Part shown: piece after piece, positions 4,807 through 64,000 of the stretch
How the letters are laid out: each line of letters begins with the position of its first letter
How positions within the stretch are numbered: position 1 is the first letter of the stretch
DNA from: Eledone cirrhosa
Taxonomy: Eukaryota
Assembly: GCA_964016885.1 (NCBI GenBank)
Contig: OZ024741.1
Coordinates: 347,076,001 to 347,140,000 of the forward strand
Direction of reading: 5' to 3'
Length of the DNA: 64,000 nucleotides
Position numbers and translations under genes: made by a program
Notes under the pieces: model-generated
The model's database searches: none
Seen by the model: the letters and a program-made list of their open reading frames with translations, nothing else
Told to the model about the DNA's origin: nothing

Positions 4807-5721
4807 GGTGGGCGTTGGGTGAAAGCAGGGGGAGGGATGAGAAGGAAGGGGTGTTAAGCGGGGTGGAGTGAACGAAGGAGTGAGTGCGAAGGATAGGCAG
4901 AGACGGGGAAGGGAAAATGAAACAGAAAAACGTAGGGAGGGAGGAGTAAACACGGGAAAATTAAAGACAAAAAATCATAAAGTTAAAAACACAGGCGATC
5001 GTGAACAAAAAATCATAAAGGTAAAATCACAGGCAATCGTGAACAAAAAATCATAGAAATAAAATTGTAAGAACACAGGCAAAGAATCATATACGGATAT
5101 ATATATATATATATATATATGACACGGAGAAAAGAAATCTTTGAAATAAATGTATGTTTCATATACTTATTATCGTCTGCTATTCGAAACACCAGATAAA
5201 ATGAGAGAGAGAGAGTAGTATGAGGTAGTCCTAACAACAGTGGTAGCAGCAAAACGCGTATAAAAACAATATGTCACAGTCATTCTATCTATCTGTATCT
5301 CTCTCTTCATATACTCACAAAATCTCTCTCTCTCTGTCACAGTCACTCTATCTGTATGAGGTAGTCATAACAACAGTGGTAGCAGGAATACGCGTATCAA
5401 TATATATATATCTGTCACAGCCACTCCTCTCTTTATGTACTCACCCATACAATGCCTCTTTCTTGCTCTAGCAATTTTATAAAATCAACGAACTACATAC
5501 AAGCACACACAGCAGCGTGTTGAAAAAAATCCAAGTCGCTTCATCTTTCTCTTTCACTCTCTCTCTCTATATATATAGTACAGATGTACCAGAAGTATTG
5601 AAATTTGAAACTTTTTAAAAGAAGTGAATCTTGAATAATATTTTTGATACATGTTTAATCATGTGTTATGAAATTTAGTACATAAATTATGTAATATTCA
5701 TTCATTATTTATTCAAAGTAA

Positions 5722-8681: not shown

Positions 8682-9467
<786 letters not shown>

Positions 9468-9782
9468 TTTGACTTAATTATATTATATATATATATACGT
9501 AAAATGTAAACAGAAATAACGGTACAGTATGTGGAAGGAATATATAGGTCACATTTGCCTGTTACCCTTTCAAAATCGATAACAAAGTACCAGTCTAGTA
9601 CTGGGTCGGTTCTTCCGCTATATCTCTTCCTCATTTCCTCTCTCTCACCTTGTATCTTTCTCTAGAAGAAATCTGCTGTACTTAAGTCTGGAGAGGTATG
9701 AGATCTGCAAGGCTTAAAATGTCCAAGAAACACCATATGTCAATACGGGGCTCTTACGAGTCTATCAGGAGTTACAAGCACC

Positions 9783-13342: not shown

Positions 13343-13565
<223 letters not shown>

Positions 13566-13761
13566 TTTAATATATCTACTAACATAAGCGCACAGATGTA
13601 CGCTAATGCCAGAAAATACACAGGTTATGTCATAGTACCTAGGTGGTTCAATGCAGGAGGATGCAGAACAATAATATAAAAGACGTAAAATAAGAAAATA
13701 AAAAAAAAATAAAAAAAATTTTTTAATAAAATAAGATGCTGAGGTTACATATGTCGTATAC

Positions 13762-13849
13762 TCATAATAATTATTTCTACGGTTCTCCATGCAATCGAGA
13801 TGTCCTTCATGCATTTGTTGTTGATTATGTGAACGGTTTCTTCAGATGA
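13762..13849 (-). ncRNA. Type I hammerhead motif with extended stem II (3' pLTR)
   Basis: tcat-CTGAAGA-aaccgttc...gaaccgta-GAAA-t-aatt-a-TT-atga. Confidence 0.65.
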
Positions 13850-15102
13850 AGATCGATATATTTGATATGCCGCTGGTAGGAAAATACACATTCTAATGCC
13901 TGTGCGCCCAGCATACATATGAGTTCCTTGAAGGGTTTGCCAGCCGTCGCGTTTGTTAGAAAAAGCTATCACCGAAAAAAGACAAAAAGAGCGAAGAACC
14001 GTGTGCAACAAAAACCCAGTAGACAGTTGAAGGAACACAAGGAGCTCTGAGGGTGCGGTGGGGTATACATTTAGTTGACGGCCATCTATAGACAACAACA
14101 GCAACGACAACAACAACTACAACAACAACGACATTTACAACAACAACGACAATAACATCAAACCGCCGACCGAAAGTTATCCACACTGGTCGCAATAGTC
14201 GTGCTGATACCATCACCCAATTGCAACAACAAGTAAAATAACAGCTACAGTAAAAAACACTTACAACGACAACAGCAACAAACAACAACAACAGCAAAAA
14301 CACAGACCAGCGTCGTGTATACAGGTCCTAGTTTTCGCAGTGACGGTACCACCCTGTTGACCGTAAACAGCGATAAGGCCAAAGCAATAAACAGGAGTTT
14401 AGAGGTAGGTGGTTACACAGAGTTGGTGATATCAATCACCATCACCATACACAGTAACAACAACAATGACAGCGACAACAAACACCAACACCACCCATCA
14501 CCTATCCCGTTCGTGGCAGTAGTGGTGGTATTCACTATGTCAGTATTAAGCCATTGGTAACACCAATAACAATAACAAAACCAGCGAAGACCGCACCACG
14601 GCGACGGCGACAACAGGAAAAAGCCACGCTTCCATGAAAATTAAACTAACCAGAATAGTAGTCCGTTGAAACAAGGGGGTGAAAATGGATACAAAACATA
14701 GATGGGTATTTATATATATAAAAACATTCCCATTTAATACAACCCTCCTCTCTCAGTGGAGGCACAAGGCAAGCAATGATCATAGCATTCAGTGACAACA
14801 ATACTATCAAAATGGCTGTTAGGAGGCCATGGAGGAGAGTTACGAGAAGCGAAAGTAGGAAGAGGAACAAATAGAAGAAACGAGAACACAATAATAAAGG
14901 AACGTGACAAAATACATAAAGAAACAGCAGTAGGTATATAAACAGAGGACTAGGGAATAAAGGAAAAGAAAACAAGTACACATATAGACTCCAGGTATGC
15001 AAACAAGATATTCAAGGATCACCCGACGCTGGGGTTGCCGCGAGGCTATGCCCACCTCCACGGACAAGATTGCAAAAGTGTTCAACTAGCACAACTACGT
15101 TG

Positions 15103-17640
15103 CTAGTCCGTACAGTTTGAGGAAGGTTCCAGAAATCTGTGGAGGCAGGTGCTGAAGAAGTTACTCCTTTTATTGGTAACTCGAGCTCCTCTCTTGTTTA
15201 TTTCCATAATCTCGGTGGCACACAAATCGCACGAGTCATGTCCACCCTCTCTGTAGGGTAGAGCCGATGCTACCTTGGACCACGACATGGTGAATTCTGC
15301 GTTATCCCGTTTGAGACGAGACACTAGTTCCGAGAGGGCGTGCTGCTGTGCCTCTTATCCGCTCTCCTAAAAGTGTGGCAGTGATTGTACTAGCGTTCCT
15401 TAAACTTATTAGCCGTAGCTCCGATATAGGTGAAGGCATGGTTGCTGGTATTCACCCTACATTCATATACTAAGCCACTGCCGAGGCACCTACCCTCCAG
15501 GGGGCAGCTACCGGGGTTCTACAATTACAACCCGGAGGGTGTTGCCGCGTGTATCACCAGAGCGCGTTGTGTGATTCCCCGGTCATTCACGCTCCAAGAC
15601 GGAAGAGGAAGAGGTATTTGCGCGGTGAGTCTTCTCACCGTTGCTGTCTCCCCTGGAGTTGCGGACGTTTTTTAATCTACTGCGGTTCAAGGCTTCTATG
15701 TTTTGTGCTAGGTTTCTAGTTGTGGGGTAGGACAATTTAACCGTGTGCCTGTTGAAGATGGCGTGGTACCAGTGTTGCTTATGGAAGTGCTTATCCAAAG
15801 CCCTGAAGAAAGAGGCCGCTATGTTGTTGCGTAAACCGGCGTAAAAGGGGGAGCGGGATTAAACCAAATGTCATTACGGGAACCGGTTTGCTTCTTGTTG
15901 TAGTCCCCAATCCCTGCACCCGTTCCGTCGGAGTATGTGTTATCTATACGCTGTGGACGTCTGGGAATAGCCATGCACCCCAATTCGTCGCTGCCCGCTG
16001 GGTTGGTTACGTCGATCGGAGCACCCCTAGCTGAATGGTCCCCGCTCATAGCAAGGGAGGCTGTTAGTACCTTCCATGTTCACTTCCGGGCCCACACATG
16101 TGCCCCACGGCTCCACCGCGTCCGCTTCACTGCTTTCCAGAGTAGGCGAGGTCAGGTCCCTTCCTGATAATCCATGGTTAGCAGTTCCTCCAGGATTACT
16201 CAGTGGTGTTGTATCAGGGATGAGTAATGAAGTCCTAGTCGTGTTGGTCCCGTCGTTGATTCCAACTGAAATGTTACCGTCAGCGGTACCGTAGTTCATT
16301 AGACTAGGTATAGACTTAATCCCTTCCTTGTACCCAGCATTACTAAGGGCATTATTATAGTAGCTAGCTACGCTATTGAAAGTGTCCTGGTTAGCTGACA
16401 GAGAAGAAATCCTACGGGATACGCTATTAACAATGACCTTCCTGACTGAGTCGGGGTGGTTGGAGTTGGCATTCACGTACTTGAGGTAATCGTTCGGCTT
16501 GTGGTACGGGTTGTAGAGGCCAGACTCTAGATTGAGGGTAACATCTAGGAAGTTGACTACCTTTCTATTATTTTCTATGTCTATGCTGAGGCCTAGATTT
16601 TTTAAAAAATTTAAACAAGTCCTTTCTAGTCCTATTTATCATGCTGTTGCTGTGGTCGAGTAGAGTAAACAACGCATCGTGGCGGTATATTCCACCGCCT
16701 AACGAAGGGATCTCGCTTTTCAGGTCACTGAGGATGTAGACGCACATCAGGTCAGTAACCTGCTCCGAGTCGCTCGATCCCGTCGTGATGTCAAAATTGT
16801 CCGGCCACTCTCTCCTAGTCCAGAGCTCACCGTCGAAACCTATCAGTGTCCTCCTGGCAGTATGGATGATGTTAATTTCATCCCTGGCTAAATCAGTATG
16901 CTTGCGTGCAAACATAAGTGCCTTATTAAGCACGACCAGCGATATGGATGCGTAATAGTTACATATATCAAGCTGTATATAATGTGTCCCACCTTTTCAC
17001 TGCAGGCCGTTAAACCACTCAGTCACTTCCACCGTTCTGGACCATTGCTGTAATTGGATCTTTTTTCTAAGGGTTGGTAAGATTCTGTCCAGTATTTTCT
17101 TGCTAATACACCCGATGTCAGACTTTGATGGTACTATAAGTCTGACTGGGAGTTCTGTTCGGAAGTTCAGTTTGTGATCCTTCAGCAAGATACTGGATTC
17201 TTTGTGTTGGTAAGGCCCGGTCCTATCCCTAAGACTGAGTTTATTCACTATTCTATTAATCCGCTCGCTAATGTCGTCAAGGTTAGCCTGTGTAGTTTTT
17301 CTGTAATTTTTTCTAAGTTCCTTAAGTATTAGTTTTCTATATGTTGCCACATCCAAGTTGTAGAGGTTACCCGTTTTATCCGTTGAACGAGAATTCCGTC
17401 TGAGCGTTTTAGTGCAGAGATCCTATTCGCCAGTTTCTTGAGGTGAAGCTGCTCCTTAGATGGGAACCTGTAGAATTTGACGCCTGTAATAATATTGGCC
17501 ATCTCTTTCTCAAAGCCCTCCATAAGTTTGTTTTGCGGTGGTTTTTTTCTAGATTTAAAACCGAACGTAGAGTCCGGGCTGCCAGTGTTCACATCATTCG
17601 TAGGGATTTTCCTATCGTAGTCGAAGGCCTTCCATCGCGA
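15103..17640 (-). pseudogene. Multiply frameshifted Naiad-type RT-GIY-YIG ORF, 5'-truncated
   Basis: ORF pieces 17329-17592, 16997-17356, 16568-16933, 16027-16476, 15583-15798 and 15103-15324 are collinear with the protein at 55002-57685. Confidence 0.88.
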
Positions 17641-18059
17641 CGACTACGACCTGTATACACGCCGCTGGTCTGTGTTTTTCCCTGTTGCCGTTTTAATTGT
17701 TTTTACTGTAGTTGTTGTTTTAGTTGTTGTTGTCAATATGGTGATGGTATCAGCAAGAGTATTGCGACCAGTGTGGATAACTTTCGGTCGGCGGTTTGAT
17801 GTTATTGTCGTTGTAGTTGTCGTTGTAGTTGTTGTTGTTGTCTATAGGTGGTCGTCAACTAAATGTATACCCCTCCCCATCCCTCAGAGCTCCTTGTGCT
17901 CCTTCATCTGTCTTTTCTTCTTTTCTTCTTTTTTCTGTGATAACTTTTTCTAACAAACGCGACGGCTGGCAAACCCTTCAAGGAACTCATATATATGCTG
18001 GGGGCACAGGCATTAGGATGTGTGTTTTCCTACCAGCGGCATATCAAATATATCGATCT

Positions 18060-18147
18060 TCATCTGAGGAAACCGTTCTCATAATCAACAGCAAATGCAT
18101 GAAGGATATCTCGATTGCATGGAGAACCGTAGAAATAATTATTATGA
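18060..18147 (+). ncRNA. Type I hammerhead motif with extended stem II (inverted pLTR copy)
   Basis: tcat-CTGAGGA-aaccgttctc...gagaaccgta-GAAA-t-aatt-a-TT-atga. Confidence 0.65.
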
Positions 18148-18192
18148 TTAAACGATATACGTAACCTCAGCATCTTATTTTATTATATATAT

Positions 18193-25430: not shown

Positions 25431-25944
25431 ATATATATATACATACATATATATATATCTTTAAAGCGTAGAAATATCCGAGACCCCCAGTAGACAACTG
25501 ATAAGGAATCCCCCTCCCCCCGTATTGCTTTCTTCTTATTCTTACTACATTTAAAGCTACCTTAAATAGTAACTACACAGCCTATCCTATTCTCCATATA
25601 TTATATCATGTTTTTGCTGTGAACAGTCTTCCCTCTCCTACCTACCTATTTCGTTACTACCTACTCTTACCCACTTTCTCCCTCTCCCTTTCTCCCTCTC
25701 ACTTTCACACATTCTCTCTCTGCTTGCCACCTCATTGTTTCCATCGCCTGACCTTCTAGTAGTCTTTTTCTCACTAACAACTCGCTGGGGTCAGACGTGT
25801 GTCTTTTATCTCTCGCACACACGCTCTTGAACTTAAGTTATCTCATCGCTGTGGTTTTGGATTTTCTTACCTTAAGTTGCTCGCACATTGCACGGTTTGT
25901 TATTTTTTTCAGCAATAATAATAATAATAATAATAATATGCACA

Positions 25945-26286
25945 AGGTAAGTATATACGTTCAACAATCTGTCAGGAAGGTATACGTTGCTGACGATAGC
26001 TAATAAGCTTGAAACTAGTACAGCGTTCCTTTGTCAGTGTTGAACAAACGAGCAACGATGGTTGCTGGACACTACGGCTTAATACAGGATGTTTGTTTAC
26101 AAACACACCGAGCATTATAATAAATGTTCAGTGAATCCATACGTACATATATATATGTGTGCATGTATGTATATATATATACATACTACTGTGCGTCTGT
26201 ATACATATATGTATGTACGTGTACATACTTATTTTTAAGTAACAGCCGTACTAAGAGTGGGAAATGAAATTTCGTTTCATTTTTCC

Positions 26287-26292
<6 letters not shown>
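25945..26292 (+). mobile_element. Diverged solo copy of the 466-bp HHR repeat family
   Basis: Aligns by eye with the reverse complement of the array unit (cgttcaac.atctg.cag, HHR, ttcct.tgtcagtgttgaacaaa, gtttgtttacaaac, actaagagtg.gaaatgaaatttcgttt). Ends in (TA)n. Confidence 0.82.
25984..26026 (+). ncRNA. Type I hammerhead ribozyme (canonical core)
   Basis: acgttg-CTGACGA-t-agct-aata-agct-t-GAAA-c-ta-g-TA-cagcgt. Confidence 0.88.
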
Positions 26293-37896: not shown

Positions 37897-37938
<42 letters not shown>

Positions 37939-38163
37939 GGATTAACAAATAATAGTTAAATGCAGTCCACTTAGGTGAAGTCCAGTTATGGTATTCCAGG
38001 TAGTGGATGATATTAACGCTTGGCTTGGTTTGACTCAACAAGGCGTTTTCATAGTGATGCTGCGGGTATGCTGTAATTCCTATGTTGTAAACACTTGGAG
38101 TAATAATAAATCAGGAAAGAAGGTTTACATGGTTTGCTATACAAAAAAGTTTTTAATCACATA

Positions 38164-38269
38164 GCTTACATTTGTTTCACTGAACTGGTATGTCTAGAGA
38201 TCGCTATCCGCCTAATTTTGCGTCACTCGATCGCCAATACAGAATTATAACCAGTCAGATCTTCGGAGC
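38164..38269 (-). ncRNA. Type I hammerhead motif, C4 variant with long stem II insertion (3' pLTR)
   Basis: gct-CCGAAGA-t-ctgactggt..(~65 nt)..accagttcag-t-GAAA-c-aaat-g-TA-agc. Confidence 0.7.
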
Positions 38270-38629
38270 ATGCGAGAATGAAGAAAATACACAGGCAAGA
38301 AAATAAAAGAAAATATGGAGTAGTTATGGCATTCAATTAGAACAATAAACAACAACAATTATTACAACAATGCTATCAATAAACTATTTAAGGAGACCCT
38401 GACATTACTTAGGTGGGGGGTATATAATGTATCTAATGTTACGGCGTGAAAACCAGCTGTCATAAGGCAAAAAGTATCGTAGTGTGTATCAATTTTAAAT
38501 TATAAAGATAAGCTAGTTTTTACAGTCTTTCTCTTCATCTTCAACCGTATACATGAGTGGGACCACTGTCAAAGCTCAATAGTTGTAGAGTTAATACAGA
38601 GGTTAACGAATTAATATACGCATATATCT

Positions 38630-38700
<71 letters not shown>

Positions 38701-39032
38701 TAAATACATATACACATATATGTGTACATAGACACATACATACACACTAATATACACTCGTACAAAAATATACATACATGCAAAGAGAAAAGCGTGCTAA
38801 TTGTAATATGGCAAAAAGAAGGTAAAGTAACATTGTAGTAGTGAAATGAGAAAAACTAGGATCTAGGATCAAATGATTGCAGCAGCTGAGAAGGAGTAAG
38901 ATTGTTGGTAGATGAGGTATTTACAGACTATTGTGTGGTATAGACTTGTGAAGGAAATAGTATACTTAATGAATATATATTTTTTGTGGGTAGTAGGTAT
39001 CCTAATTTAAAGCTATGTTATGTTGGTTCGAT

Positions 39033-41417
39033 TCACGGAGGTTTGAATCTTATGAATTTAGTGGTTATTCTATGCCTGCAGAAGATAGATCTTTCTAACT
39101 TATTATTAAGTAGTCTTTTAACATTTCTAAGGATATACAATAGCTCAAGATCACACAGCCCGCAATAGGACATACCTGTACTATAGGTTTTAGCAGCCGA
39201 CAACTTCGACCAGTTGATAGTGTAGCTAGCGTTGCTGTCCTTCAATTCCCATATTTTTCTGGCGAGGGTGGTGGAACCCATAAGAGCTCGGTTTTTCATC
39301 GAGTGCCTGTGCACATACCATCTTTTCTTAAAAGAACCCGCGGTAGATCCTATGTAATTCCAAGTGGAGTTACCCGAGATGACAGTGCACATGTACACCA
39401 GGCTCGAATCGAGACATTTATTCGCCAATGGGCACCTATCTGGGAGGTGACAGTTGCAGTTTGAGGCGCTATTATGTGCAGCTTTTACATTCCTATTTAG
39501 TACCCTGTTATAAGTGGGTTGTGATATATGCCCAATGGGGTTTTGCTGCTACGCGTTTGTATGCGCTTGTGGTTGTGATGTTGTGATGAGTTTATGCTTA
39601 TGTATAGGTGCAATTGATTTACTTGAGATATTTCTGCGGTTGATCTTGCGTATGTGTGATTCTATGTTAGCTGCTGTTGAAAAAGAGAGTTTTATAGTAG
39701 ATCTATTGAGTAGTTTGTGATATCTATGCGAGATAGGGAAGTGTTTATCTATTAGTTTAAAGAATATAGAAGGCAGTCTAGTTTTTATAGAGGAGTTGAA
39801 TATTGGGTTGAACCATAGGTATTTCCTTTGTCTGTTTCTTCTATTGTTTCTAGGGTTTACGTTATTAGTGTTTTGGCCGTTTACTCTAGGTGTTACATGT
39901 CTAACCCTATGTCTAGTCAAGCTATTCCTATTATTATGTGAGCGGTTGGAGTAGAAATTACTAGGATTGTTTATGTTGTCCTTATTCACTATATACTGTA
40001 GTTTATCTTTATGACCGGCCCTACTTAATGCTGCATTATAATAGTCAGCATGCTCGTTAAAGATTTCTAGGTTTGAGGATAGGCGGGATATTCGGAGGGA
40101 TATACTACGTGCTATGGATTTAATTATGGATTTGGGGTGATTTGAGTTGTAACTAATGTAGGCAAGATTTTCATTATTTTTGTGGAAAGGTTCTATTAAT
40201 CCAGTATTTAGATTTAGAGTTACATCTAGAAAATTTACCTTCTTATGGTTTAGTTCGTAGGTAATACTTAGGCCTAGTTTTTTGAAGAATATTCTAATAT
40301 TTTTCCTTAGTCTTTCCATGCTCTGGTTGTTTAGGTTCCTAGCTATAAGTAACGTGTCGTCCCTATAAATTCCTCCTTGGAGGTTACTGAATTCCTTATG
40401 TAGGTTGTGTGCTATGAATAGCCCCACGATATCTGTAATTTGCGCAGAATCATTTGAACCCATTGTAATATCGAAGCTATTTATTCTATCCTTTCTTACC
40501 CAGTAGTTATTTTCAAATTTTACGATAGTCCTTCTAGCCGCTATTATTATTTCAATTTCATCATGGGTAAGATCAGAGTTATTTTGGGCAAATATAAGCG
40601 CCTTATCTAGGGTAGCTGGGGATATGGATGCATAATAGTCGTCTATATCAAATTGTATGAAGTTACACGTATCCCTATTTTGTATTTTATTGAACCATTT
40701 AATTGCCTCGTTAGTGTTGCCCCATAGATTGATTTCTAGTTTACCCTTTATTTGTGCGATTACCCTATCTAGAATGTTTTTGCTAATTTTACCTATGTCT
40801 GACTTGGATGGGCATATTAATCTAATGGTAGGATTAGTTTCAAAGTTATTTTTGTGATCTTTCAGGTTAAATGTAGGGTTGCACGGGGTAAGCGGTTCGG
40901 TCCTATCTGAAATTCCGAGTTTATTAACTATCTTGAGGCCCTCCATGTTTATGCTGGTGAGTGTAGATTCATTTGTTTTTTTATATTTTTTATGTAGTTC
41001 ACGCTGAATAAAGTTATTGTATGTGTTAATGTCCATAGAGTATACGTTTGATGTTTTGTCTGCTTTTACTATGATACCGTTAGTGTCTTTTAGTTTTTTA
41101 AGTAATGTGTTTAAGTCATTTTGCAATTTGTTGTGATTTGTTCTTTTTTTAAATTTAGTTTCACTTATCATGTTCATAAGGTCCAGCTCGAAGGCATCGA
41201 GTGCGGGGTTGTTTGGCGGGTTTTTGCAGGATTTAAACCCGTAATTCTCCTTGGAAAATTTCCTTCTGTTGGTATTCGGTCCCTTATCGAAATGGTAAGC
41301 TTTCCATCGGACCCTGCGGATGAAATCATTAGTCCGTCGTATCATGCCCAGTGTATAGTCCTTTTTTGTAGGTACAGGTATGTTTTTTAGTGACATACCT
41401 ATACAGTGCTTCTCCAT
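39033..41417 (-). pseudogene. Naiad-type RT + GIY-YIG ORF (~794 codons) with one premature TAG
   Basis: SLKNIPVP, RRVRWKAYHF, KADKT, FDIDDYYASI, ITMGS, GGIYRDD, WFNP, CNC...CPLANKCL, VY..YIG (GIY-YIG), CGLC..E..NK..CRH. TAG at 39549-39551 is CAG in the inverted copy. Confidence 0.92.
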
Positions 41418-41694
41418 GTTGTTGCCGTGCGTTAATGGTGTTGCTCGACCAGGTGGGAGCTAAATATACGGATTAACAAATAATAGTTAAATGCAGTCCA
41501 CTTAGGTGAAGTCCAGTTATGGTATTCCAGGTAGTGGATGATATTAACGCTTGGCTTGGTTTGACTCAACAAGGCGTTTTCATAGTGATGCTGCGGGTAT
41601 GCTGTAATTCCTATGTTGTAAACACTTGGAGTAATAATAAATCAGGAAAGAAGGTTTACATGGTTTGCTATACAAAAAAGTTTTTAATCACATA

Positions 41695-41800
41695 GCTTAC
41701 ATTTGTTTCACTGAACTGGTATGTCTAGAGATCGCTATCCGCCTAATTTTGCGTCACTCGATCGCCAATACAGAATTATAACCAGTCAGATCTTCGGAGC
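41695..41800 (-). ncRNA. Same hammerhead motif in the 5' pLTR
   Basis: Identical to 38164-38269, spaced 3531 nt away. Confidence 0.7.
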
Positions 41801-42165
41801 ATGCGAGAATGAAGAAAATACACAGACAAGAAAATAAAAGAAAATATGGAGTAGTTATGGCATTCAATTAGAACAATAAACAACAACAATTATTACAACA
41901 ATGCTATCAATAAACTATTTAAGGAGACCCTGACATTACTTAGGTGGGGGGTATATAATGTATCTAATGTTACGGCGTGAAAACCAGCTGTCATAAGGCA
42001 AAAAGTATCGTAGTGTGTATCAATTTTAAATTATAAAGATAAGCTAGTTTTTACAGTCTTTCTCTTCATCTTCAACCGTATACATGAGTGGGACCACTGT
42101 CAAAGCTCAATAGTTGTAGAGTTGATACAGAGGTTAACGAATTAATATACGCATATATCTACGCG

Positions 42166-42205
<40 letters not shown>

Positions 42206-42585
42206 AATATAAATACATATACACATATATGTGTACATAGACACATACATACACACTAATATACACTCGTACAAAAATATACATACATGCAAAGAGAAAA
42301 GCGTGCTAATTGTAATATGGCAAAAAGAAGGTAAAGTAACATTGTAGTAGTGAAATGAGAAAAACTAGGATCTAGGATCAAATGATTGCAGCAGCTGAGA
42401 AGGAGTAAGATTGTTGGTAGATGAGGTATTTACAGACTATTGTGTGGTATAGACTTGTGAAGGAAATAGTATACTTAATGAATATATATTTTTTGTGGGT
42501 AGTAGGTATCCTAATTTAAAGCTATGTTATGTTGGTTCGATTCACGGAGGTTTGAATCTTATGAATTTAGTGGCTATTCTATGCC

Positions 42586-43569
42586 GGTCATAAAGATAAA
42601 CTACAGTATATAGTGAATAAGGACAACATAAACAATCCTAGTAATTTCTACTCCAACCGCTCACATAATAATAGGAATAGCTTGACTAGACATAGGGTTA
42701 GACATGTAACACCTAGAGTAAACGGCCAAAACACTAATAACGTAAACCCTAGAAACAATAGAAGAAACAGACAAAGGAAATACCTATGGTTCAACCCAAT
42801 ATTCAACTCCTCTATAAAAACTAGACTGCCCTCTATATTCTTTAAACTAATAGATAAACACTTCCCTATCTCGCATAGATATCACAAACTACTCAATAGA
42901 TCTACTATAAAACTCTCTTTTTCAACAGCAGCTAACATAGAATCACACATACGCAAGATCAACCGCAGAAATATCTCAAGTAAATCAATTGCACCTATAC
43001 ATAAGCATAAACTCATCACAACATCACAACCACAAGCGCATACAAACGCGCAGCAGCAAAACCCCATTGGGCATATATCACAACCCACTTATAACAGGGT
43101 ACTAAATAGGAATGTAAAAGCTGCACATAATAGCGCCTCAAACTGCAACTGTCACCTCCCAGATAGGTGCCCATTGGCGAATAGATGTCTCGATTCGAGC
43201 CTGGTGTACATGTGCACTGTCATCTCGGGTAACTCCACTTGGAATTACATAGGATCTACCGCGGGTTCTTTTAAGAAAAGATGGTATGTGCACAGGCACT
43301 CGATGAAAAACCGAGCTCTTATGGGTTCCACCACCCTCGCCAGAAAAATATGGGAATTGAAGGACAGCAACGCTAGCTACACTATCAACTGGTCGAAGTT
43401 GTCGGCTGCTAAAACCTATAGTACAGGTATGTCCTATTGCGGGCTGTGTGATCTTGAGCTATTGTATATCCTTAGAAATGTTAAAAGACTACTTAATAAT
43501 AAGTTAGAAAGATCTATCTTCTGCAGGCATAGAATAGCCACTAAATTCATAAGATTCAAACCTCCGTGA
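42586..43569 (+). pseudogene. Inverted 5'-truncated copy of the ORF 3' part (linker and GIY-YIG), frame intact
   Basis: ORF 42613-43569 is near-identical to the reverse complement of ~39033-40017. Confidence 0.9.
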
Positions 43570-43901
43570 ATCGAACCAACATAACATAGCTTTAAATTAG
43601 GATACCTACTACCCACAAAAAATATATATTCATTAAGTATACTATTTCCTTCACAAGTCTATACCACACAATAGTCTGTAAATACCTCATCTACCAACAA
43701 TCTTACTCCTTCTCAGCTGCTGCAATCATTTGATCCTAGATCCTAGTTTTTCTCATTTCACTACTACAATGTTACTTTACCTTCTTTTTGCCATATTACA
43801 ATTAGCACGCTTTTCTCTTTGCATGTATGTATATTTTTGTACGAGTGTATATTAGTGTGTATGTATGTGTCTATGTACACATATATGTGTATATGTATTT
43901 A

Positions 43902-43971
<70 letters not shown>

Positions 43972-44332
43972 TAGATATATGCGTATATTAATTCGTTAAC
44001 CTCTGTATTAACTCTACAACTATTGAGCTTTGACAGTGGTCCCACTCATGTATACGGTTGAAGATGAAGAGAAAGACTGTAAAAACTAGCTTATCTTTAT
44101 AAATTAAAATTGATACACACTACGATACTTTTTGCCTTATGACAGCTGGTTTTCACGCCGTAACATTAGATACATTATATACCCCCCACCTAAGTAATGT
44201 CAGGGTCTCCTTAAATAGTTTATTGATAGCATTGTTGTAATAATTGTTGTTGTTTATTGTTCTAATTGAATGCCATAACTACTCCATATTTTCTTTTATT
44301 TTCTTGCCTGTGTATTTTCTTCATTCTCGCAT

Positions 44333-44438
44333 GCTCCGAAGATCTGACTGGTTATAATTCTGTATTGGCGATCGAGTGACGCAAAATTAGGCGGATAGCG
44401 ATCTCTAGACATACCAGTTCAGTGAAACAAATGTAAGC
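44333..44438 (+). ncRNA. Same hammerhead motif in the inverted pLTR
   Basis: Reverse complement of 38164-38269. Confidence 0.7.
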
Positions 44439-44491
44439 TATGTGATTAAAAACTTTTTTGTATAGCAAACCATGTAAACCTTCTTTCCTGA

Positions 44492-44543
<52 letters not shown>

Positions 44544-51092: not shown

Positions 51093-51122
<30 letters not shown>

Positions 51123-51166
51123 AAGTTAAATAAAAGTCAAATGATTAAAATTTAGCTTCGTTTATT

Positions 51167-51221
51167 ACTGCTATATATATTTCAGTGACAGCCATCTTTG
51201 GCTGTGACCTCTTCAGGCAGT
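51167..51221 (-). ncRNA. Type I hammerhead ribozyme (inverted pLTR)
   Basis: actgc-CTGAAGA-ggtc-acagcca-aaga-tggctgt-cact-GAAA-tatata-TA-gcagt, followed by aataaa. Confidence 0.85.
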
Positions 51222-52420
51222 TTGAATTAGTATGGTATAGACAAGTACATATGTTGTTTAGGTGTATGATATTGTCAATACTCTGATATGCCCAGTTCCT
51301 TGTTGGGTTGTTAATTCACTGGGGAACTGGAGTCATATGAATTCAAACAAACGAATTTTAGTGTCACAGGTCCCCTTCTCCTCTCATTGGTCAGTTATTA
51401 GTGTTGTCATTGTTGGAGTTAGCTTAAAAATTGATAAAATGGTAGAAGGGACAAGGTGTTGAAGGAACAAAATATCAAAAAATGTGTCAAACTTCCCATT
51501 GTTCAGTTCTGAGAGCATTCCTCAGTCAGAAGTCTATAGAATTCTTTCTGGGGTGAGGCTTCCTGTAGTGTTTATGCCTGCTATTGTTCAGTACATTTGA
51601 CCTCCACCATTATTTTGGTACTGTTGTTGTTGTAGTGGTCAGCTTATATCTTGCTGCTGCTAACAATTTAGAAGTATTCAGTTTGTGTTTTCTCTTCATC
51701 CCACCCGCCACCATCGTAGTGGTGGTGGCGGTGGGGGGGGGGGGGGGGTTATTTCATGTATATGAAGAAATATAAGGCAATAAATGAAGAAAACAGAAGA
51801 TAAATAAATAATATAATAAAATAAAATAATTAATATAATTTGTGTAATTTGAAAATAAATAAATAAATAGAGAATAAAGAATAAAGAGTAAATGAGAGAT
51901 TGGTGAAAAAGTAATGATAATGTATATGGAGAAGTGAGAAATAATGTAGGATAAAGTGTGTGTGTGTGTGTGCTATAACCAATCTCAAGGTCAGAATATG
52001 TTGGATAAATTGGTATGATACAAGATGTTAAGATGAGATATTCAATGTGTTTGTGTTATAATCTATCTCAACTTAAAATAAATATAAATATAAGGTTATA
52101 CAGTGAAGAGGGCAGAAAACAAATAACAAATTAATATAGAGAAATCAAGATTTAAGATTGGAACTTTAAAGTCAGAAATCTGGTAAATTAAAAGTGTTTG
52201 TGTTATAGATGTTGGCCAGATTATTATGGCTGTGTCCGATTCTGTCTCTAGGCTATCATGGTGTCTGCTCCGCCTGGGTTGTTCCCTATGGCTTGAGGGG
52301 AGTTCACAACCTAGGGTGTTGTAATTGTCCATATAGCTTGAGGGAGGTCTGGCCGAGATGTGTTTTCATGTTCTGTAGAAGTCCCTATAGCTTGAGGGGA
52401 GTTCACATCTTCTTGTGTTG

Positions 52421-53764
52421 CTACTGTCCATATATTTTGAGAAAGGTCCCGGCTCTAAGGTGTCTGCATGTCCCGAAGAAGTCGGTTCTGAGGTTTATCA
52501 GGCCGCTTCCACCTCTTAGTATCTCGAGGGTCTCGTTCAGGCATAGTTTGCATATGCAAGATCCCCCTTTATCGGGTGGTACTTTCCTGATTATGTACCA
52601 GGCCAGAGAGTATGGGGTCCTGTCCAGCTAAAGCTTCCAGATCAGGTCGGAGAGAGCTGTGCTTTTCCTTTTGGCCTCTTTCTTGAATGAATGGCGATGG
52701 TTGTACCAGCGGTCCTTAAAGCTCGTTGATGTGGCTCCTATGTAGAGGTGTTCGGAGTTGGGGGTTTTAACCCTACAACCGTACACTATGTTCTTCTTGA
52801 GACATTCATTACCAAGGGGGCATGATTCGGGGTTTCTACAGTTGCAGAGGGTGGGCGGCCTCTGCGTGCTTAGATTAGGGTTCTCATTATGTGTTACATG
52901 TTGGTCATACCCCATGCTCGGTGGGGGGTCCTTGGGTCTGTTTGTGTTTCTTGGGTGGGCTCTGGGTCCCCCCTTCCCTCCTTTCACATGGTTCTGCTGA
53001 GTGTTTGTATTGCCATCTTCTGGTTGTGTGTGGTTTTTAAGCCTACTTCTGTTGATGCTAGCTATGTGTTGGGCCAAATTTCTCGTGGCGGAATACGAAA
53101 GCTTCACAGTGTGTCTGTTGAAGATCCTGTGGTATCTGTGGTCCCTCGGGAAGCATTTGTCAAGTGCTCCAAAGAACAATCGGGCCAAGCTTTTCTTTAG
53201 GGCCGCTGAGTAGGGTGGGTTGTACCACGTGATTTGTCGGTGTCTCCTCCTATATGTGTGGGTTGGGGGCTTCGTGATTTGTTGGAGATTTGTTGGTTTG
53301 CTGGTAGTTTCCGCACTGTTGCTTCCCTTTTGGGCTCTATACTTTCTGTTATCTTTACGGCCCGGATTTGTGGGGTGGTTGTTGTCTGCCCCGGGAGATC
53401 CATCGTGGGGTGGTCGCCCGTTTCCTACCCCCCCACGTGTCCTGCGGTTGGGGTTGTCCGTCCTGGGGTAGTTAGCATCACGCCTGAGACTGCTACTCAT
53501 ATTGTGCTCCATCTCGTGGTCAAGCGCACTAGTCCCCACCGCCCGTGTGGTGGTGTCTGGTACATGGTGCCTATTTGATTTTGCTCTGCTTGTATTGTTA
53601 GGGTTCGCCCTCCCCCCTCTGGTAACGCGGTTGTGGGTGTCTGTTGGACTATCCACCTCCCGGCTTTTCGGACTATATGTTATATTTTGTCCATGTGCCG
53701 CCTTCTTTAGAGCTGCGTTGTAATATTCCGCGTTGTAATATTCCGCGTTGTAATATTCCGCGTG
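52421..53764 (-). pseudogene. Inverted 5'-truncated copy of the ORF 3' half, with AAG>TAG stop at 52628-52630
   Basis: ORF 52628-53656 matches the forward ORF without the poly-G frameshift. Confidence 0.9.
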
Positions 53765-54744
53765 CTATAACACAAACACTTTTAATTTACCAGATTTCTG
53801 ACTTTAAAGTTTCAATCTTAAATCTTGATTTCTCTATATTAATTTGTTATTTGTTTTCTGCCCTCTTCACTGTATAACCTTATATTTATATTTATTTTAA
53901 GTTGAGATAGATTATAACACAAACACATTGAATATCTCATCTTAACATCTTGTATCATACCAATCTATCCAACATATTCTGACCTTGAGATTGGTTATAG
54001 CACACACACACACACACTTTATCCTACATTATTTCTCACTTCTCCATATACATTATCATTACTTTTTCACCAATCTCTCATTTACTCTTTATTCTTTATT
54101 CTCTATTTATTTATTTATTTTCAAATTACACAAATTATATTAATTATTTTATTTTATTATATTATTTATTTATCTTCTGTTTTCTTCATTTATTGCCTTA
54201 TATTTCTTCATATACATGAAATAACCCCCCCCCACCGCCACCACCACTACGATGGTGGCGGGTGGGATGAAGAGAAAACACAAACTGAATACTTCTAAAT
54301 TGTTAGCAGCAGCAAGATATAAGCTGACCACTACAACAACAACAGTACCAAAATAATGGTGGAGGTCAAATGTACTGAACAATAGCAGGCATAAACACTA
54401 CAAGGAGCCTCACCCCAGAAAGAATTCTATATACTTCTGACTGAGGAATGCTCTCAGAACTGAACAATGGGAAGTTTGACACATTTTTTGATATTTTGTT
54501 CCTTCAACACCTTGTCCCTTCTACCATTTTATCAATTTTTAAGCTAACTCCAACAATGACAACACTAATAACTGACCAATGAGAGGAGAAGGGGACCTGT
54601 GACACTAAAATTCGTTTGTTTGAATTCATATGACTCCAGTTCCCCAGTGAATTAACAACCCAACAAGGAACTGGGCATATCAGAGTATTGACAATATCAT
54701 ACACCTAAACAACATATGTACTTGTCTATACCATACTAATTCAA

Positions 54745-54799
54745 ACTGCCTGAAGAGGTCACAGCCAAAGATGGCTGTCACTGAAATATATATAGCAGT
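54745..54799 (+). ncRNA. Type I hammerhead ribozyme (5' pLTR)
   Basis: Identical motif, with a perfect 5-bp stem I (actgc/gcagt). Confidence 0.85.
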
Positions 54800-55001
54800 A
54801 ATAAACGAAGCTAAATTTTAATCATTTGACTTTTATTTAACTTTATTTTACACTACTCCGGAGTAACCAAACCAACCTGCGCACTTCGTCGAGTGCTCCA
54901 GCCTGCATACTGAGGTGTTGGTATACAACCAACATAAACTCAAAATCTATCTAGCTCCCACACGGGTTGAGCGCTTCAAACAGTAGCGGACCTAAGTCAC
55001 T

Positions 55002-57685
55002 ATGGATAAACTGGCAACCTTAGCGTCACTGAAGGACATCCCCCTACCTGATAAACGAGAATACACCAGTGATCTCATCAAGAGTACGGACTCCCTCATC
55101 CGTAGGATGAGATGGAAGGCGTTCCACTTCGAAAGAGGAACGCAGAAAACTACAAACACAGAAAACATGGAGTACCTTTTTCGATCAAGGAGGAATCCCC
55201 CCCATAACAGACTAATGGAGGAGTTTGAAAACGAGATGATTAACATCATATCCAACCTCAAATTCTCCGGAAACCCAACCAGAAGTCAGGAGTACCTCAG
55301 ACACCTGAGAAACCGGATTACAGTACTTAAAGGGACAACTGGAATACTTGTCCATGCTGACAAAACAAACAACCTCTACAACATGAACACTGAACTGTAC
55401 AATAAACTAATCCTCAGGGAACTGAGGAAGTGCTACAAAAAAACACCTGGATTTACCCTGGATGAGATCAATGCCACAGCTTACAGGATTATATCCAGAA
55501 TCGGCATAGAGGACAGGACTGCCCCATACCAACCAAGGGAGCCGCGGATTACCCTTAAAGACCACAAGTCAAACTTTGAGTCCGACCTCCCTGTCAGACT
55601 AATAGCCCCCTCCAGATCTGACCTAGGGATCGTCAGTAAAAGAATACTGGATAGGATTTTGCCCAAGCTTCGGAAAAAAACCAAATTACAGCAATGGTCA
55701 TGCACGAGAGAAGCAATAGAATGGTTCAAAATACTGCAGGAGAAAAGTAGGACCAGCTTTATACAACTGGACATCGCAAGCTACTACTCCTCAATCTCAC
55801 CCATAGTACTTAATAAGGCCCTATTTTTAGCGATGTCCAATACGGACCTAACCCGAGAGGAGGTGAGCATCATCCACGCCGAAAGAAAGACCTTAATCCG
55901 CTTCGATGGAGACCTGTGGACCAGGAGTGATTGGCCAAATAACTTTGACATCACGATGGGCTCCAGCGACTCAGCGCAGGTAACGGACCTGGTTGGGCTC
56001 TACCTGCTGAAGCAGATAAAAGATGAAATCCCCTGCCTGGGCGGCGGATTATATCGTGACGATGCTCTATTCACAGTACATGACCACAGTACCAATATGT
56101 TGGAGGGTATGAGGAGGCGTATTCGCCATTTCTTTAAGAACCAGGGGCTCAGCATAGAAATAGACCCAAATAGGAAGGTAGTTAACTTCCTAGACACCAC
56201 CCTAAACCTGAACACCGAGCAATACTACCCCTACCACAAGCCCAACGAGAAACTAGTATATGTTAACGCCAAATCAAACCACCCTAGATCCATAACCAAG
56301 GCAGTGGTGAAGAGTGTCTCGGACAGGATCTCCAGCCTGTCCGCAAGTAAGGAAATATTCAACAACCACGCGGAATATTACAACGCAGCTCTAAAGAAGG
56401 CGGCACATGGACAAAATATAACATATAGTCCGAAAAGCCGGGAGGTGGATAGCCCAACAGACACCCACAACCGCGTTACCAGAGGGGGGAGGGCGAACCC
56501 TAACAATACAAGCAGAGCAAAATCAAATAGGCACCATGTACCAGACACCACCACACGGGCGGTGGGGACTAGTGCGCTTGACCACGAGATGGAGCACAAT
56601 ATGAGTAGCAGTCTCAGGCGTGATGCTAACTACCCCAGGACGGACAACCCCAACCGCAGGACACGTGGGGGGGGGGGGGGGGAAACGGGCGTCAACCCCA
56701 CGATGGATCTCCCGGGTCAGACAACAACCACCCCACAAATCCGGGCCGTGAAGATAACAGAAAGTATAGAGCCCAAAAGGGAAGCAACAGTGCGGAAACC
56801 ACCAGCAAACCAACAAATCTCCAACAAATCACGAAGCCCCCAACCCACACATATAGGAGAAGACACCGACAAATCACGTGGTACAACCCACCCTACTCAG
56901 CGGCCCTAAAGAAAAGCTTGGCCCGATTGTTCTTTGGAGCACTTGACAAATGCTTCCCGAGGGACCACAGATACCACAGGATCTTCAACAGACACACTGT
57001 GAAGCTTTCGTATTCCACCACGAGAAATTTGGCCCAACACATAGCTAGCATCAACAGAAGTAGGCTTAAAAACCACACACAACCAGAAGATGGCAATACA
57101 AACACTCAGCAGAACCATGTGAAAGGAGGGAAGGGGGGACCCAGAGCCCACCCAAGAAACACAAACAGACCCAAGGACCCCCCACCGAGCATGGGGGAAG
57201 ACCAACATGTAACACATAATGAGAACCCTAATCTAAGCACGCAGAGGCCGCCCACCCTCTGCAACTGTAGAAACCCCGAATCATGCCCCCTTGGTAATGA
57301 ATGTCTCAAGAAGAACATAGTGTACGGTTGTAGGGTTAAAACCCCCAACTCCGAACACCTCTACATAGGAGCCACATCAACGAGCTTTAAGGACCGCTGG
57401 TACAACCATCGCCATTCATTCAAGAAGGACGCCAAAAGGAAAAGCACAGCTCTCTCCGACCTGATCTGGAAGCTTAAGCTGGACAGGACCCCATACTCTC
57501 TGGCCTGGTACATAATCAGGAAAGTACCACCCGATAAAGGGGGATCTTGCATATGCAAACTATGCCTGAACGAGACCCTCGAGATACTAAGAGGTGGAAG
57601 CGGCCTGATAAACCTCAGAACCGACTTCTTCGGGACATGCAGACACCTTAGAGCCGGGACCTTTCTCAAAATATATGGACAGTAG
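55002..57685 (+). CDS. Naiad-type RT + GIY-YIG ORF with one frameshift in a poly-G run
   Basis: SLKDIPLP, RRMRWKAFHF, HADKT, LDIASYYSSI, ITMGS, GGLYRDD, WYNPPYS, CNCRNPESCPLGNECL, IVY..YIG, CKLCLNE, CRH. G16 at 56667-56682 corresponds to G7TAGG in the inverted copy. Confidence 0.85.
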
Positions 57686-58879
57686 CAACACAAGAAGATG
57701 TGAACTCCCCTCAAGCTATAGAGACTTCTACAGAACATGAAAACACCTCTCGGCCAGACCTCCCTCAAGCTATATGGACAATTACAACACCCTAGGTTGT
57801 GAACTCCCCTCAAGCCATAGGGAACAACCCAGGCGGAGCAGACACCATGATAGCCTAGAGACAGAATCGGACACAGCCATAATAATCTGGCCAACATCTA
57901 TAACACAAACACTTTTAATTTACCAGATTTCTGACTTTAAAGTTCCAATCTTAAATCCTGATTTCTCTATATTAATTTGTTATTTGTTTTCTGCCCTCTG
58001 CACTGTATAACCTTATATTTATATTTATTTTAAGTTAAGATAGATTATAACACAAACACATTGAATATCTCATCTTAACATCTTGTATCATACCAATTTA
58101 TCCAACATATTCTGACCTTGAGATTGGTTATAGCACACACACACAAACACTTTATCCTACATTATTTCTCACTCTCCATATACATTATCATTACTTTTTC
58201 ACCAATCTCTCATTTACTCTTTATTCTTTATTCTCTATTTATTTATTTATTTTCAAATTACACAAATTATATTAATTATTTTATTTTATTATATTATTTA
58301 TTTATCTTCTGTTTTCTTCATTTATTGCCTTATATTTCTTCATATACATGAAATAACCCCCCCCCCCCCCCGCCACCACCACTACGATGGTGGCGGGTGG
58401 GATGAAGAGAAAACACAAACTGAATACTTCTAAATTGTTAGCAGCAGCAAGATATAAGCTGACCACTACAACAACAACGGTACCAAAATAATGGTGGAGG
58501 TCAAATGTACTGAACAATAGCAGGCATAAACACTACAGGGAGCCTCACCCCATAAAGAATTCTATAGACTTCTGACTGAGGAATGCTCTCAGAACTGAAC
58601 AATGGGAAGTTTGACACATTTTTTGATATTTTGTTCCTTCAACACCTTGTCCCTTCTACCATTTTATCAATTTTTAAGCTAACTCCAACAATGACAACAC
58701 TAATAACTGACCAATGAGAGGAGAAGGGGACCTGTGACACTAAAATTCGTTTGTTTGAATTCATATGACTCCAGTTCCCCAGTGAATTAACAACCCAACA
58801 AGGAACTGGGCATATCAGAGTATTGACAATATCATACACCTAAACAACATATGTACTTGTCTATACCATACTAATTCAA

Positions 58880-58934
58880 ACTGCCTGAAGAGGTCACAGC
58901 CAAAGATGGCTGTCACTGAAATATATATAGCAGT
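58880..58934 (+). ncRNA. Type I hammerhead ribozyme (3' pLTR)
   Basis: Identical motif, 4135 nt from the 5' copy. Confidence 0.85.
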
Positions 58935-59100
58935 AATAAACGAAGCTAAATTTTAACCATTTGACTTTTATTTAACTTTATTTTACACTACTCCGGAGTA
59001 ACCAAACCAACCTGCGCACTTCGTCGAGTGCTCCAGCCTGCATACTGAGGTGTTGGTATACAACCAACATAAACTCAAAATATATATATATATGTATATA

Positions 59101-61126: not shown

Positions 61127-61712
61127 TTAAGAAGAACAGAACGAGTTTCACATTTGGGTTTTACTTGATTAGTCTCAGTTATACACTTTTCATAGATTGG
61201 TGGATCCAGACCTATATTATGATTACCGACCTAATAACTCCAGCCACAATCTTCTCATCAGACACGATACTCACGCAAAGCCATCATCTCATAGAGTGCT
61301 AATATTGGTACCTTTCTCAGTAAACGACGAATCTCCTGATACACCTAATATACATACACATAAACACACACATACACACACACACACATATAAATATATA
61401 TATATATATATAAATTGAAACAAAATGAAAACGAAATTTCATTTCTCACTCTTAGTATGGCACTTACTTAAATGCAAGTATGCATGTATACGTACATACA
61501 TATATGTATACAGACGTACAGTAGCATGCACATATATATATATATATACATATATACATACATATGCATACAGGTACACATACATATATGCACGTATCAG
61601 TTTAGCGGCGCTAACGTCGCTTTGTTCGTTTGTAAACAAACTGAACAGCCTGAATTTATGCCATACGGTGTTAAGGCAACCACGTCACCTTTTTGTTCAA
61701 CACTGACACAGG

Positions 61713-61757
61713 AACGATGTACTAGTTTCAAGCTTGTTAGCTATCATCAGCACCGTT
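61713..61757 (-). ncRNA. Type I hammerhead ribozyme, unit 1
   Basis: aacggtg-CTGATGA-t-agct-aaca-agct-t-GAAA-c-ta-g-TA-catcgtt (7-bp stem I with one G-U). Confidence 0.9.
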
Positions 61758-62178
61758 TACCCATCTGCCAGATAGTTGAACGTTCGAAAGTATATACTTT
61801 CCTTATGAAAATTAACGGCTGAGCAGCCTAATTTGCATATTGAGTGAGTTAAATCGGTCAGGCATACCGAAAACGATAAATTGAAACAAAATGAAAACGA
61901 AATTTCATTTCTCACTCTTAGTATGGCACTTACTTAAATGTAAGTATGCATGTATACGTACATACATATATGTATACAGACGTACAGTAGCATGCACATA
62001 TATATATATATATACATATATACATACATATGCATACAGGTACACATACATATATGCACGTATCAGTTTAGCGGCGCTAACGTCGCTTTGTTCGTTTGTA
62101 AACAAACTGAACAGCCTGAATTTATGCCATACGGTGTTAAGGCAACCACGTCACCTTTTTGTTCAACACTGACACAGG

Positions 62179-62223
62179 AACGATGTACTAGTTTCAAGCT
62201 TGTTAGCTATCATCAGCACCGTT
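62179..62223 (-). ncRNA. Type I hammerhead ribozyme, unit 2
   Basis: Identical to unit 1. Confidence 0.9.
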
Positions 62224-62644
62224 TACCCATCTGCCAGATAGTTGAACGTTCGAAAGTATATACTTTCCTTATGAAAATTAACGGCTGAGCAGCCTAATTT
62301 GCATATTGAGTGAGTTAAATTGGTCAGGCATACCGAAAACGATAAATTGAAACAAAATGAAAACGAAATTTCATTTCTCACTCTTAGTATGGCACTTACT
62401 TAAATGTAAGTATGCATGTATACGTACATACATATATGTATACAGACGTACAGTAGCATGCACATATATATATATATATACATATATACATACATATGCA
62501 TACAGGTACACATACATATATGCACGTATCAGTTTAGCGGCGCTAACGTCGCTTTGTTCGTTTGTAAACAAACTGAACAGCCTGAATTTATGCCATACGG
62601 TGTTAAGGCAACCACGTCACCTTTTTGTTCAACACTGACACAGG

Positions 62645-62689
62645 AACGATGTACTAGTTTCAAGCTTGTTAGCTATCATCAGCACCGTT
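62645..62689 (-). ncRNA. Type I hammerhead ribozyme, unit 3
   Basis: Identical to unit 1. Confidence 0.9.
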
Positions 62690-63110
62690 TACCCATCTGC
62701 CAGACAGTTGAACGTTCGAAAGTATATACTTTCCTTATGAAAATTAACGGCTGAGCAGCCTAATTTGCATATTGAGTGAGTTAAATCGGTCAGGCATACC
62801 GAAAACGATAAATTGAAACAAAATGAAAACGAAATTTCATTTCTCACTCTTAGTATGGCACTTACTTAAATGCAAGTATGCATGTATACGTACATACATA
62901 TATGTATACAGACGTACAGTAGCATGCACATATATATATATATATACATATATACATACATATGCATACAGGTACACATACATATATGCACGTATCAGTT
63001 TAGCGGCGCTAACGTCGCTTTGTTCGTTTGTAAACAAACTGAACAGCCTGAATTTATGCCATACGGTGTTAAGGCAACCACGTCACCTTTTTGTTCAACA
63101 CTGACACAGG

Positions 63111-63155
63111 AACGATGTACTAGTTTTAAGCTTGTTAGCTATCATCAGCACCGTT
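63111..63155 (-). ncRNA. Hammerhead, unit 4, with G12>A core mutation (probably inactive)
   Basis: Plus strand reads tagttttaag instead of tagtttcaag (63127 C>T), so GAAA becomes AAAA. Confidence 0.8.
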
Positions 63156-63576
63156 TACCCATCTGCCAGATAGTTGAACGTTCGAAAGTATATACTTTCC
63201 TTATGAAAATTAACGGCTGAGCAGCCTAATTTGCATATTGAGTGAGTTAAATCGGTCAGGCATACCGAAAACGATAAATTGAAACAAAATGAAAACGAAA
63301 TTTCATTTCTCACTCTTAGTATGGCACTTACTTAAATGCAAGTATGCATGTATACGTACATACATATATGTATACAGACGTACAGTAGCATGCACATATA
63401 TATATATATATACATATATACATACATATGCATACAGGTACACATACATATATGCACGTATCAGTTTAGCGGCGCTAACGTCGCTTTGTTCGTTTGTAAA
63501 CAAACTGAACAGCCTGAATTTATGCCATACGGTGTTAAGGCAACCACGTCACCTTTTTGTTCAACACTGACACAGG

Positions 63577-63621
63577 AACGATGTACTAGTTTCAAGCTTG
63601 TTAGCTATCATCAGCACCGTT
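63577..63621 (-). ncRNA. Type I hammerhead ribozyme, unit 5
   Basis: Identical to unit 1. Confidence 0.9.
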
Positions 63622-64000
63622 TACCCATCTGCCAGATAGTTGAACGTTCGAAAGTATATACTTTCCTTATGAAAATTAACGGCTGAGCAGCCTAATTTGC
63701 ATATTGAGTGAGTTAAATCGGTCAGGCATACCGAAAACGATAAATTGAAACAAAATGAAAACGAAATTTCATTTCTCACTCTTAGTATGGCACTTACTTA
63801 AATGTAAGTATGCATGTATACGTACATACATATATGTATACAGACGTACAGTAGCATGCACATATATATATATATATACATATATACATACATATGCATA
63901 CAGGTACACATACATATATGCACGTATCAGTTTAGCGGCGCTAACGTCGCTTTGTTCGTTTGTAAACAAACTGAACAGCCTGAATTTATGCCATACGGTG

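Follow-up and report, generated by a model that had tools for sequence, protein, structure and literature searches.

Three related, non-coding, hammerhead-bearing repeats, which we call families A, B and C, lie in the window (the whole 64,000-nt stretch of Eledone cirrhosa DNA analysed here). Judged by the sequence features tested, they are non-LTR retrozymes that behave like PLE passengers. The reading we favour, and consider likely on balance, is that these retrozymes insert with two fixed internal ends, a long end (L) and a short end (S), both written by a PLE enzyme and probably from one circular RNA. A fixed internal end is an already known PLE signature, and circular templates for more-than-unit reverse transcription have been proposed since 2014, for PLEs (PMC4209133) and for retrozymes (PMC7229834). 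In the literature searched, retrozyme integration and circular RNA as a PLE template appear as proposals, and we found no demonstration of either. Nor did that literature show fixed internal ends in a retrozyme, a near-strict rule of one L and one S, or editing scars common to both arms. The features of the three families in the window are as follows:

61410..64000, minus strand: tandem array of family A, L arm, with a 466-nt unit (window sequence and adjoining contig)
61394..61409: (TA)n target tract, read from the sequence
61410..61414, minus strand: long 3′ end L (TTTAT) of the family A array, 310 nt past the predicted cut
61423..61447, minus strand: predicted hairpin between S and L, a prediction only, found in A, B and C
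61469..61471, minus strand: position of the short end S (phase ~248–251), read through in this arm of the 61410 array and equal to the end of the opposed arm
61713..61757, minus strand: type I hammerhead, CUGAUGA...GAAACUAGUA, predicted cut 61720/61719, from core and stems, recurring every 466 nt
8780..9467, minus strand: family B copy, L arm of ~1.47 units of 468 nt, with L 304 nt past the predicted cut 9084/9083
9467..9479, plus strand: inverted S arm of the family B copy, 13 nt, followed by a TA tract
25934..26292, plus strand: family C copy, single arm, unit ~422 nt, predicted cut 26020/26021, with L 272 nt past the cut

The family A array outruns the window and reaches C2:347143196, for a length of 5,787 nt or ~12.4 units. 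Beyond the window lies its inverted arm of 134 nt, which ends at S and is followed by (TA)n; no ORF of 150 amino acids was found in the array. Unit lengths are 466 nt in A, 468–469 nt in B and ~422 nt in C, tandem arrays occur in all three families, and the monomers align over their full length with the motif TTTATCG aligned in each. Hammerhead cores with stems I and II are present in the A, B and C copies, their cuts being predicted. The family B copy matches Rfam Hammerhead_HH9 at 9061–9132 with 37.7 bits, under the gathering score of 52, and exact matching finds 4,970 intact family B ribozyme junctions genome-wide. The elements end in S or L junctions without terminal repeats, and they show the features of PLE passengers: an inverted 5′-truncated arm, variable 5′ ends and a microsatellite target. 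In the family A array, two out of 11 complete units (63118–63125 and one past the window) carry AAAA in place of GAAA, a change predicted from the sequence to inactivate their ribozymes; the two units are four apart, inside a repeated four-unit block. Rfam microRNA matches in the window were rejected as microsatellite artefacts.

The first-pass annotation had placed a fixed insertion point at a TTTAT motif running into (TA)n, about 270–310 nt downstream of the ribozyme cut and not at the cut itself. All three relatives indeed end in this way, at 61410, 8780 (given there one base off, as 8781) and 26292, and the listed distances of 310 (A), 304 (B) and 272 nt (C) agree with the estimate. In exact-pattern counts across the 3.0-Gb genome, L junctions number 1,954 for family B and 2,636 for family C, and backwards controls give 0; only a single place genome-wide has a family B copy that stops at the cut with TA next to it. 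The end is therefore fixed, but it is not a single point: there are two, L and S, which are paired per insertion. S lies ~55–75 nt upstream of L, at phase ~248–251 in A, 228–235 in B and 209–221 in C. One spelling of S has 714 exact matches; a gapped S pattern covers one subfamily and counts overlapping matches, and is not used as a total.

Mapped against the hammerhead, 3′ ends are not randomly distributed. Among 26 family B loci chosen by the ribozyme alone and scored by eye, 24 arm ends fall at L and 17 at S, together 41 of 42. A TA run of at least 8 nt lies within 22 nt of 39 of those 41 ends (by eye), and a (TA)4 run lies within 22 nt of all 52 S ends tested, compared to 9.5% of random window positions, which bears out the proposed enrichment beside (TA)n. 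The 29 family C regions chosen by their ribozyme region comprise 25 that end at L or S (one borderline), two open arrays and two that end elsewhere (by eye). The 34 L ends among 34 family A loci are a biased count, because the query that found them itself ends at L.

In most insertions two arms of opposite orientation meet at their 5′ ends. We followed 90 consecutive family B L junctions on contig C1 and used 88, leaving out locus L225 (the structure is the same as L224) and locus L250 (unparsed, with an S junction listed). In 52 of these the 3′ end of the partner arm is S, in none is it L, and in three it lies elsewhere; six are open and 27 single-armed, and 10 of the 27 carry an S arm of a few bases. 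In a family B set picked by score, closed two-armed loci are L+S in 22 of 22 cases (by eye), and both the family A array at 61410 and the family B copy at 8780 obey the same rule. The exceptions, scored by eye, are two L+L insertions (L034 and L039) against 13 L+S in family A and one (L105) against eight in family C, together with one possible S+S pair among the 100 S matches listed. Such a near-strict rule constrains any model of PLE integration.

Both arms of an insertion are made of the same unit, and its copies within one insertion mostly agree fully or differ very little. Locus L192, for example, holds 18 identical units that differ by three substitutions from the nearest sampled locus. 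Arm lengths within an insertion are uncorrelated (rho 0.21, P=0.13), and the breakpoints of the two arms match in 9 of 52 insertions, where permutation gives 5.2 (P=0.07). That the L cDNA is blocked at the S primer is unsupported (9 cases, 7.1 expected), and an excess of S arms that stop at their own start is weak (5, with 1.4 expected; P=0.013, uncorrected, in 24 tests). By comparison, 12 arms have their 5′ end at the hairpin where 4.2 are expected (P=0.001), which we read as fold-back joining.

In the initial annotation, nicked (TA)n DNA primes by annealing to UAU; that such annealing determines the site is not supported. The homology is short, 3 nt at L and in most cases a single nucleotide at S: 38 of 47 L termini keep TAT, the last TAT of the 61410 array being common to element and target, and the S end wanders over ~8 nt and mostly has one T in common with the target. 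Monomer A offers 29 TAT sites and a UA tract of 17 nt, of which hardly any use is made; a single arm was seen to end in the UA tract (locus L038). With TA homology of just 1–3 nt and little use of the longer UA tracts inside the unit, annealing is not what selects the site. Insertions are also found in (ATC)n and in unique AT-rich DNA, and one of the latter, locus L125, has a 12-bp target duplication. Base pairing appears to set the register rather than the site, and the sites are likely picked by a protein bound near the hairpin that is predicted between S and L. At loci L092, L100, L104 and L131, retrozyme arms sit inside another repeat, in its (ATC)n tail.

Reverse transcription had been proposed to start internally and to cross the ribozyme junction, which the read-through arms and intact junctions corroborate. 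Family B arms have a median length of 584 nt and run to ~6 kb at most, with 64% of them longer than one unit. The template is continuous across the predicted cut. As to its nature, the annotation had left a circle, an uncleaved multimer or a template jump; of these, A>G changes fixed in all units of family B insertions favour the circle. The test covered 133 family B loci, with variants present in at most four loci and at least three covering units, at six threshold settings, and was applied to each unit outside its TA/CA-rich middle. Rare variants fixed in all units are A>G 24 times and T>C once in the RNA sense (14 loci vs 1), compared to 21 and 21 for single-unit variants. Requiring both arms and at least four units leaves 14 and 1, and examples of insertions with fixed A>G include loci L205 (23 units) and L192 (19 units). 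Among the fixed A>G sites are positions 270, 275, 338, 342, 343 and 422 of the family B unit. At locus L231 (C1:62076829-62081158), which contributes eight sites of the family B total, at least eight A>G changes are fixed in all covering units, as if it had been copied from a hyper-edited RNA.

ADAR sites disfavour G as the 5′ neighbour. At the A>G sites G precedes in 2 of 34 cases, compared to 24 of 124 background adenosines. For strictly private family B variants the counts are 8 A>G and 3 T>C (four loci vs three), which is not significant, and shared A>G variants may have been inherited from parent copies. Families A (2 vs 1) and C (0 vs 1, counted outside the long C28 arrays) give no A>G signal. 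The fixation of A>G across all units in family B implies that a single edited unit was amplified, most simply by repeated reading of a circle. The pattern of variants suggests that one edited template, probably circular, lies behind each such family B insertion, and we regard a circular template in general as a good bet.

The strongest competing explanation, which we consider unlikely, keeps the same PLE enzyme and start sites but assumes a template that is transcribed from a long parent array and stays uncleaved as a linear multimer, with no part for the ribozyme in insertion. Uncleaved RNA is the dominant substrate of the Poseidon PLE of the green anole in vitro, where ribozyme cleavage is dispensable (PMC11167929), and eight of nine Xenopus dimers are reported as uncleaved in vitro (10.64898/2026.07.22.740005). 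Possible parent arrays of sufficient length exist (loci L149 and L150), and some arrays contain partly shared, periodic variants. In the 61410 array, four variants occur in only some units and units 4–7 recur as 8–11, a repeat that one monomer circle cannot give; period-2 or period-3 patterns are present at loci L111, L201 and L205. DNA-level duplication or multimeric templates therefore also contribute to the arrays. If an uncleaved multimer were the usual template, however, edits should scatter among units, whereas the A>G excess is confined to the all-units class (24:1 vs 21:21). Moreover, several subfamilies each have long, uniform two-armed arrays despite a median arm of 584 nt. As a separate observation, loci L149, L150 and L089 on contig C28 are diverged, satellite-like family C arrays with higher-order patterns, and both 9-kb stretches fetched are filled by them.

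Improbable as the template is a cleaved linear monomer, with the reverse transcriptase leaving it at its 5′ end and resuming at the 3′ end of that molecule or of a different one. An end-to-end jump on one molecule would fix edits just as a circle does, and 5′ ends show a slight, non-significant excess near the cut: in 140 family B arms with 261 crossings of the junction, six ends lie within 5 nt of it where 2.9 are expected (P=0.074). This is no pile-up; the rate of stopping at the cut is ~2% per crossing. The junctions themselves are nearly scar-free, with intact spacing in 518 of 523 crossings in B, 70 of 70 in A and 54 of 54 in C (controls, 444/444 and 475/478), and arrays do not mix subfamilies, both of which speak against jumping.

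Still less probable is an origin of arrays and inverted arms in DNA-level events (unequal crossing over, circular DNA or fold-back repair) after insertion of a monomer, with the ends produced by (TA)n recombination: the duplicated unit blocks of the 61410 array and the very long satellite-like family C arrays on C28 fit it, but such events cannot account for opposed arms whose fixed ends differ, for a duplicated target, for an autonomous PLE family that obeys the rule too, or for an A>G bias on the RNA strand, and DNA-level recombination is probably a secondary process only.

The PLEs of the window are as follows:

37938..44496: two-armed Hydra-clade PLE, long end 37938 and short end 44496 (168 nt shorter), both in (TA)n
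51116..59080: second two-armed Hydra-clade PLE, short end 51116 and long end ~59080
13563..18185: third, Hydra-like PLE, decayed, with inverted arms; ends inferred from one copy
468..4974, minus strand: Neptune-like PLE (DKG, CX2-5CxxC) with a minimal hammerhead-like core and ends in (TA)n

The neighbouring PLEs had been called Naiads. As described in PMC8557442, Naiads have an N-terminal nuclease and DKA and no canonical hammerhead; here the GIY-YIG domain is C-terminal (after the RT), the motif is DKT, and the second element carries hammerheads (predicted cuts 51172, 54794 and 58929). The two large neighbours feature RWK, DKT, a C-terminal GIY-YIG, CxCX5C, CxxC and CxH. Compared to the Hydra diagnostics in the same source (C-terminal EN, RWK, DKT, CxCX5C, CxxC and CxH), these motifs place them in the Hydra clade. 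A Pfam search with six PLE proteins gave no significant match. ORF pieces of the first element lie at 39033–41459 on the minus strand, and its family is young, with open frames of 808 amino acids in the genome. At 44330–44440 and in its copies, ~60 nt upstream of the short end, we noted by eye a weak hammerhead-like core, CCGAAGA, with a long stem II and a 3-bp stem I.

The autonomous family follows the same rule as the retrozymes. In 30 loci of the first Hydra family there are 18 L-type ends, 16 S-type ends, one read-through and one unresolved, and all seven resolved two-armed insertions are L+S. The suggestion that the neighbouring PLEs supply the enzyme thus survives in part: target and tail behaviour match those of one PLE family, yet proximity does not identify the enzyme, because the PLEs and the retrozymes have no significant DNA similarity. 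At the DNA level, A, B and C share only short or low-complexity matches with the four window PLEs, UTRs included, and among ~280 fetched loci we found no PLE with an A-, B- or C-type ribozyme. We consider it highly probable that a PLE mobilises the retrozymes. Hydra is the leading clade for the enzyme, and the Neptune-like element is an alternative source.

A mechanism that would account for these features begins with a tandem transcript that would cut itself and, by analogy with other retrozymes, be ligated into a circle of 420–470 nt. The PLE protein would bind the hairpin between S and L or its vicinity, and its GIY-YIG nuclease would introduce staggered nicks, one per strand, in (TA)n or another AT-rich target, as the one 12-bp target duplication suggests. 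One nicked end would prime at L and the other at S, with pairing of 1–3 nt setting only the register; the paired ends are seen in the genome, and priming is the step we propose to explain them. Each reverse transcriptase would pass the ribozyme junction, often for several rounds, in keeping with the read-through observed, and the two cDNAs would be joined head to head at a short shared sequence, the structure found in the insertions. Single-armed copies would be those whose second arm is missing or spans a few bases, and some arrays would grow later by DNA-level duplication.

In its most specific form, which we hold to be somewhat better than an even proposition, a pair of PLE enzymes would act on one ribozyme-made RNA circle at two fixed sites flanking the hairpin. 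Each strand of the staggered break would be primed at a different site, both arms would be extended by rolling, and A-to-I edits on that one molecule would be copied into up to 23 units. If true, this would prove from genomic sequence that retrotransposition can use a circular template, and a single asymmetric two-site mechanism would explain both the tail and the inverted arm of PLEs. A young family with thousands of copies, two start sites and an A>G barcode, together with intact candidate enzymes of 808 amino acids, makes a direct test possible with a short RNA substrate and a target.

The families resemble the metazoan non-LTR retrozymes (PMC7229834; 10.64898/2026.07.22.740005): in both, tandem units that are AT-rich, non-coding and a few hundred bases long each carry a single type I hammerhead, and copies are found dispersed as well as in tandem. 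For those elements, mobilisation by PLEs and the use of circular templates have been proposed as well. With 422–469 nt, the units described here fall near the top of the range given there. The available portions of these two sources contain no mapped ends, two start sites, two-armed inverted insertions or editing scars. The second ties retrozymes to the pLTRs of PLEs, with ends unmapped in the portion available, and no pLTR homologue is found among the four window PLEs.

The closest biochemical parallel is Poseidon (PMC11167929), in which two internal start sites downstream of the hammerhead cut define the tail in vitro, the target is AT-rich, and both strands are nicked and extended. Poseidon, however, is autonomous, its starts fall within the ORF and lack homology to the target, and in vitro the two strands showed no difference in start site. 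The retrozymes described here, in contrast, are non-coding, have a tail of ~55–75 nt, match the target over 1–3 nt and usually combine one L with one S.

PLEs more widely have been described as having an inverted arm and, in many cases, a tail at just one of their ends (PMC8557442). The Hydra clade, as presented in that source, shares with the retrozymes (TA)n targeting, hammerheads, an inverted 5′-truncated arm and a tail often at one end only. Unlike Hydra elements, the retrozymes encode no protein and have no significant DNA similarity to the window PLE UTRs, and the Hydra tails here measure 95 and 168 nt. Chlamys PLEs differ in being mostly without hammerheads, and their non-autonomous forms, such as MRC1, resemble their partners at the 3′ end (PMC8557442). 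The consulted portions of PMC6765202 and 10.1101/2022.05.23.493040 held nothing decisive for the question.

Contigs of four sequencing runs, compared with one family B unit, contain the unit joint in four of four and no usable end pile-ups; we do not count them as evidence. In runs X4, X5 and X6, from three other organisms, family B accounts for 51–70% of sampled words, tandem joint included.

The window and the fetched loci hold further elements of related appearance. At 59730–60451, a short element with an internal inverted repeat (~60014–60250) and (TA)n at both ends resembles a small two-armed insertion of another family. Near-perfect inverted repeats with ~190 nt per arm lie beside (TA)n at 12796–13187 and 50690–51096, and are possibly further short two-armed insertions. 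A fragment at 23069–23845 resembles, by eye, a non-LTR (LINE-type) reverse transcriptase. Finally, the flanks of the ~280 loci contain at least 10 other hammerhead types, and the genome is rich in ribozyme-bearing elements.
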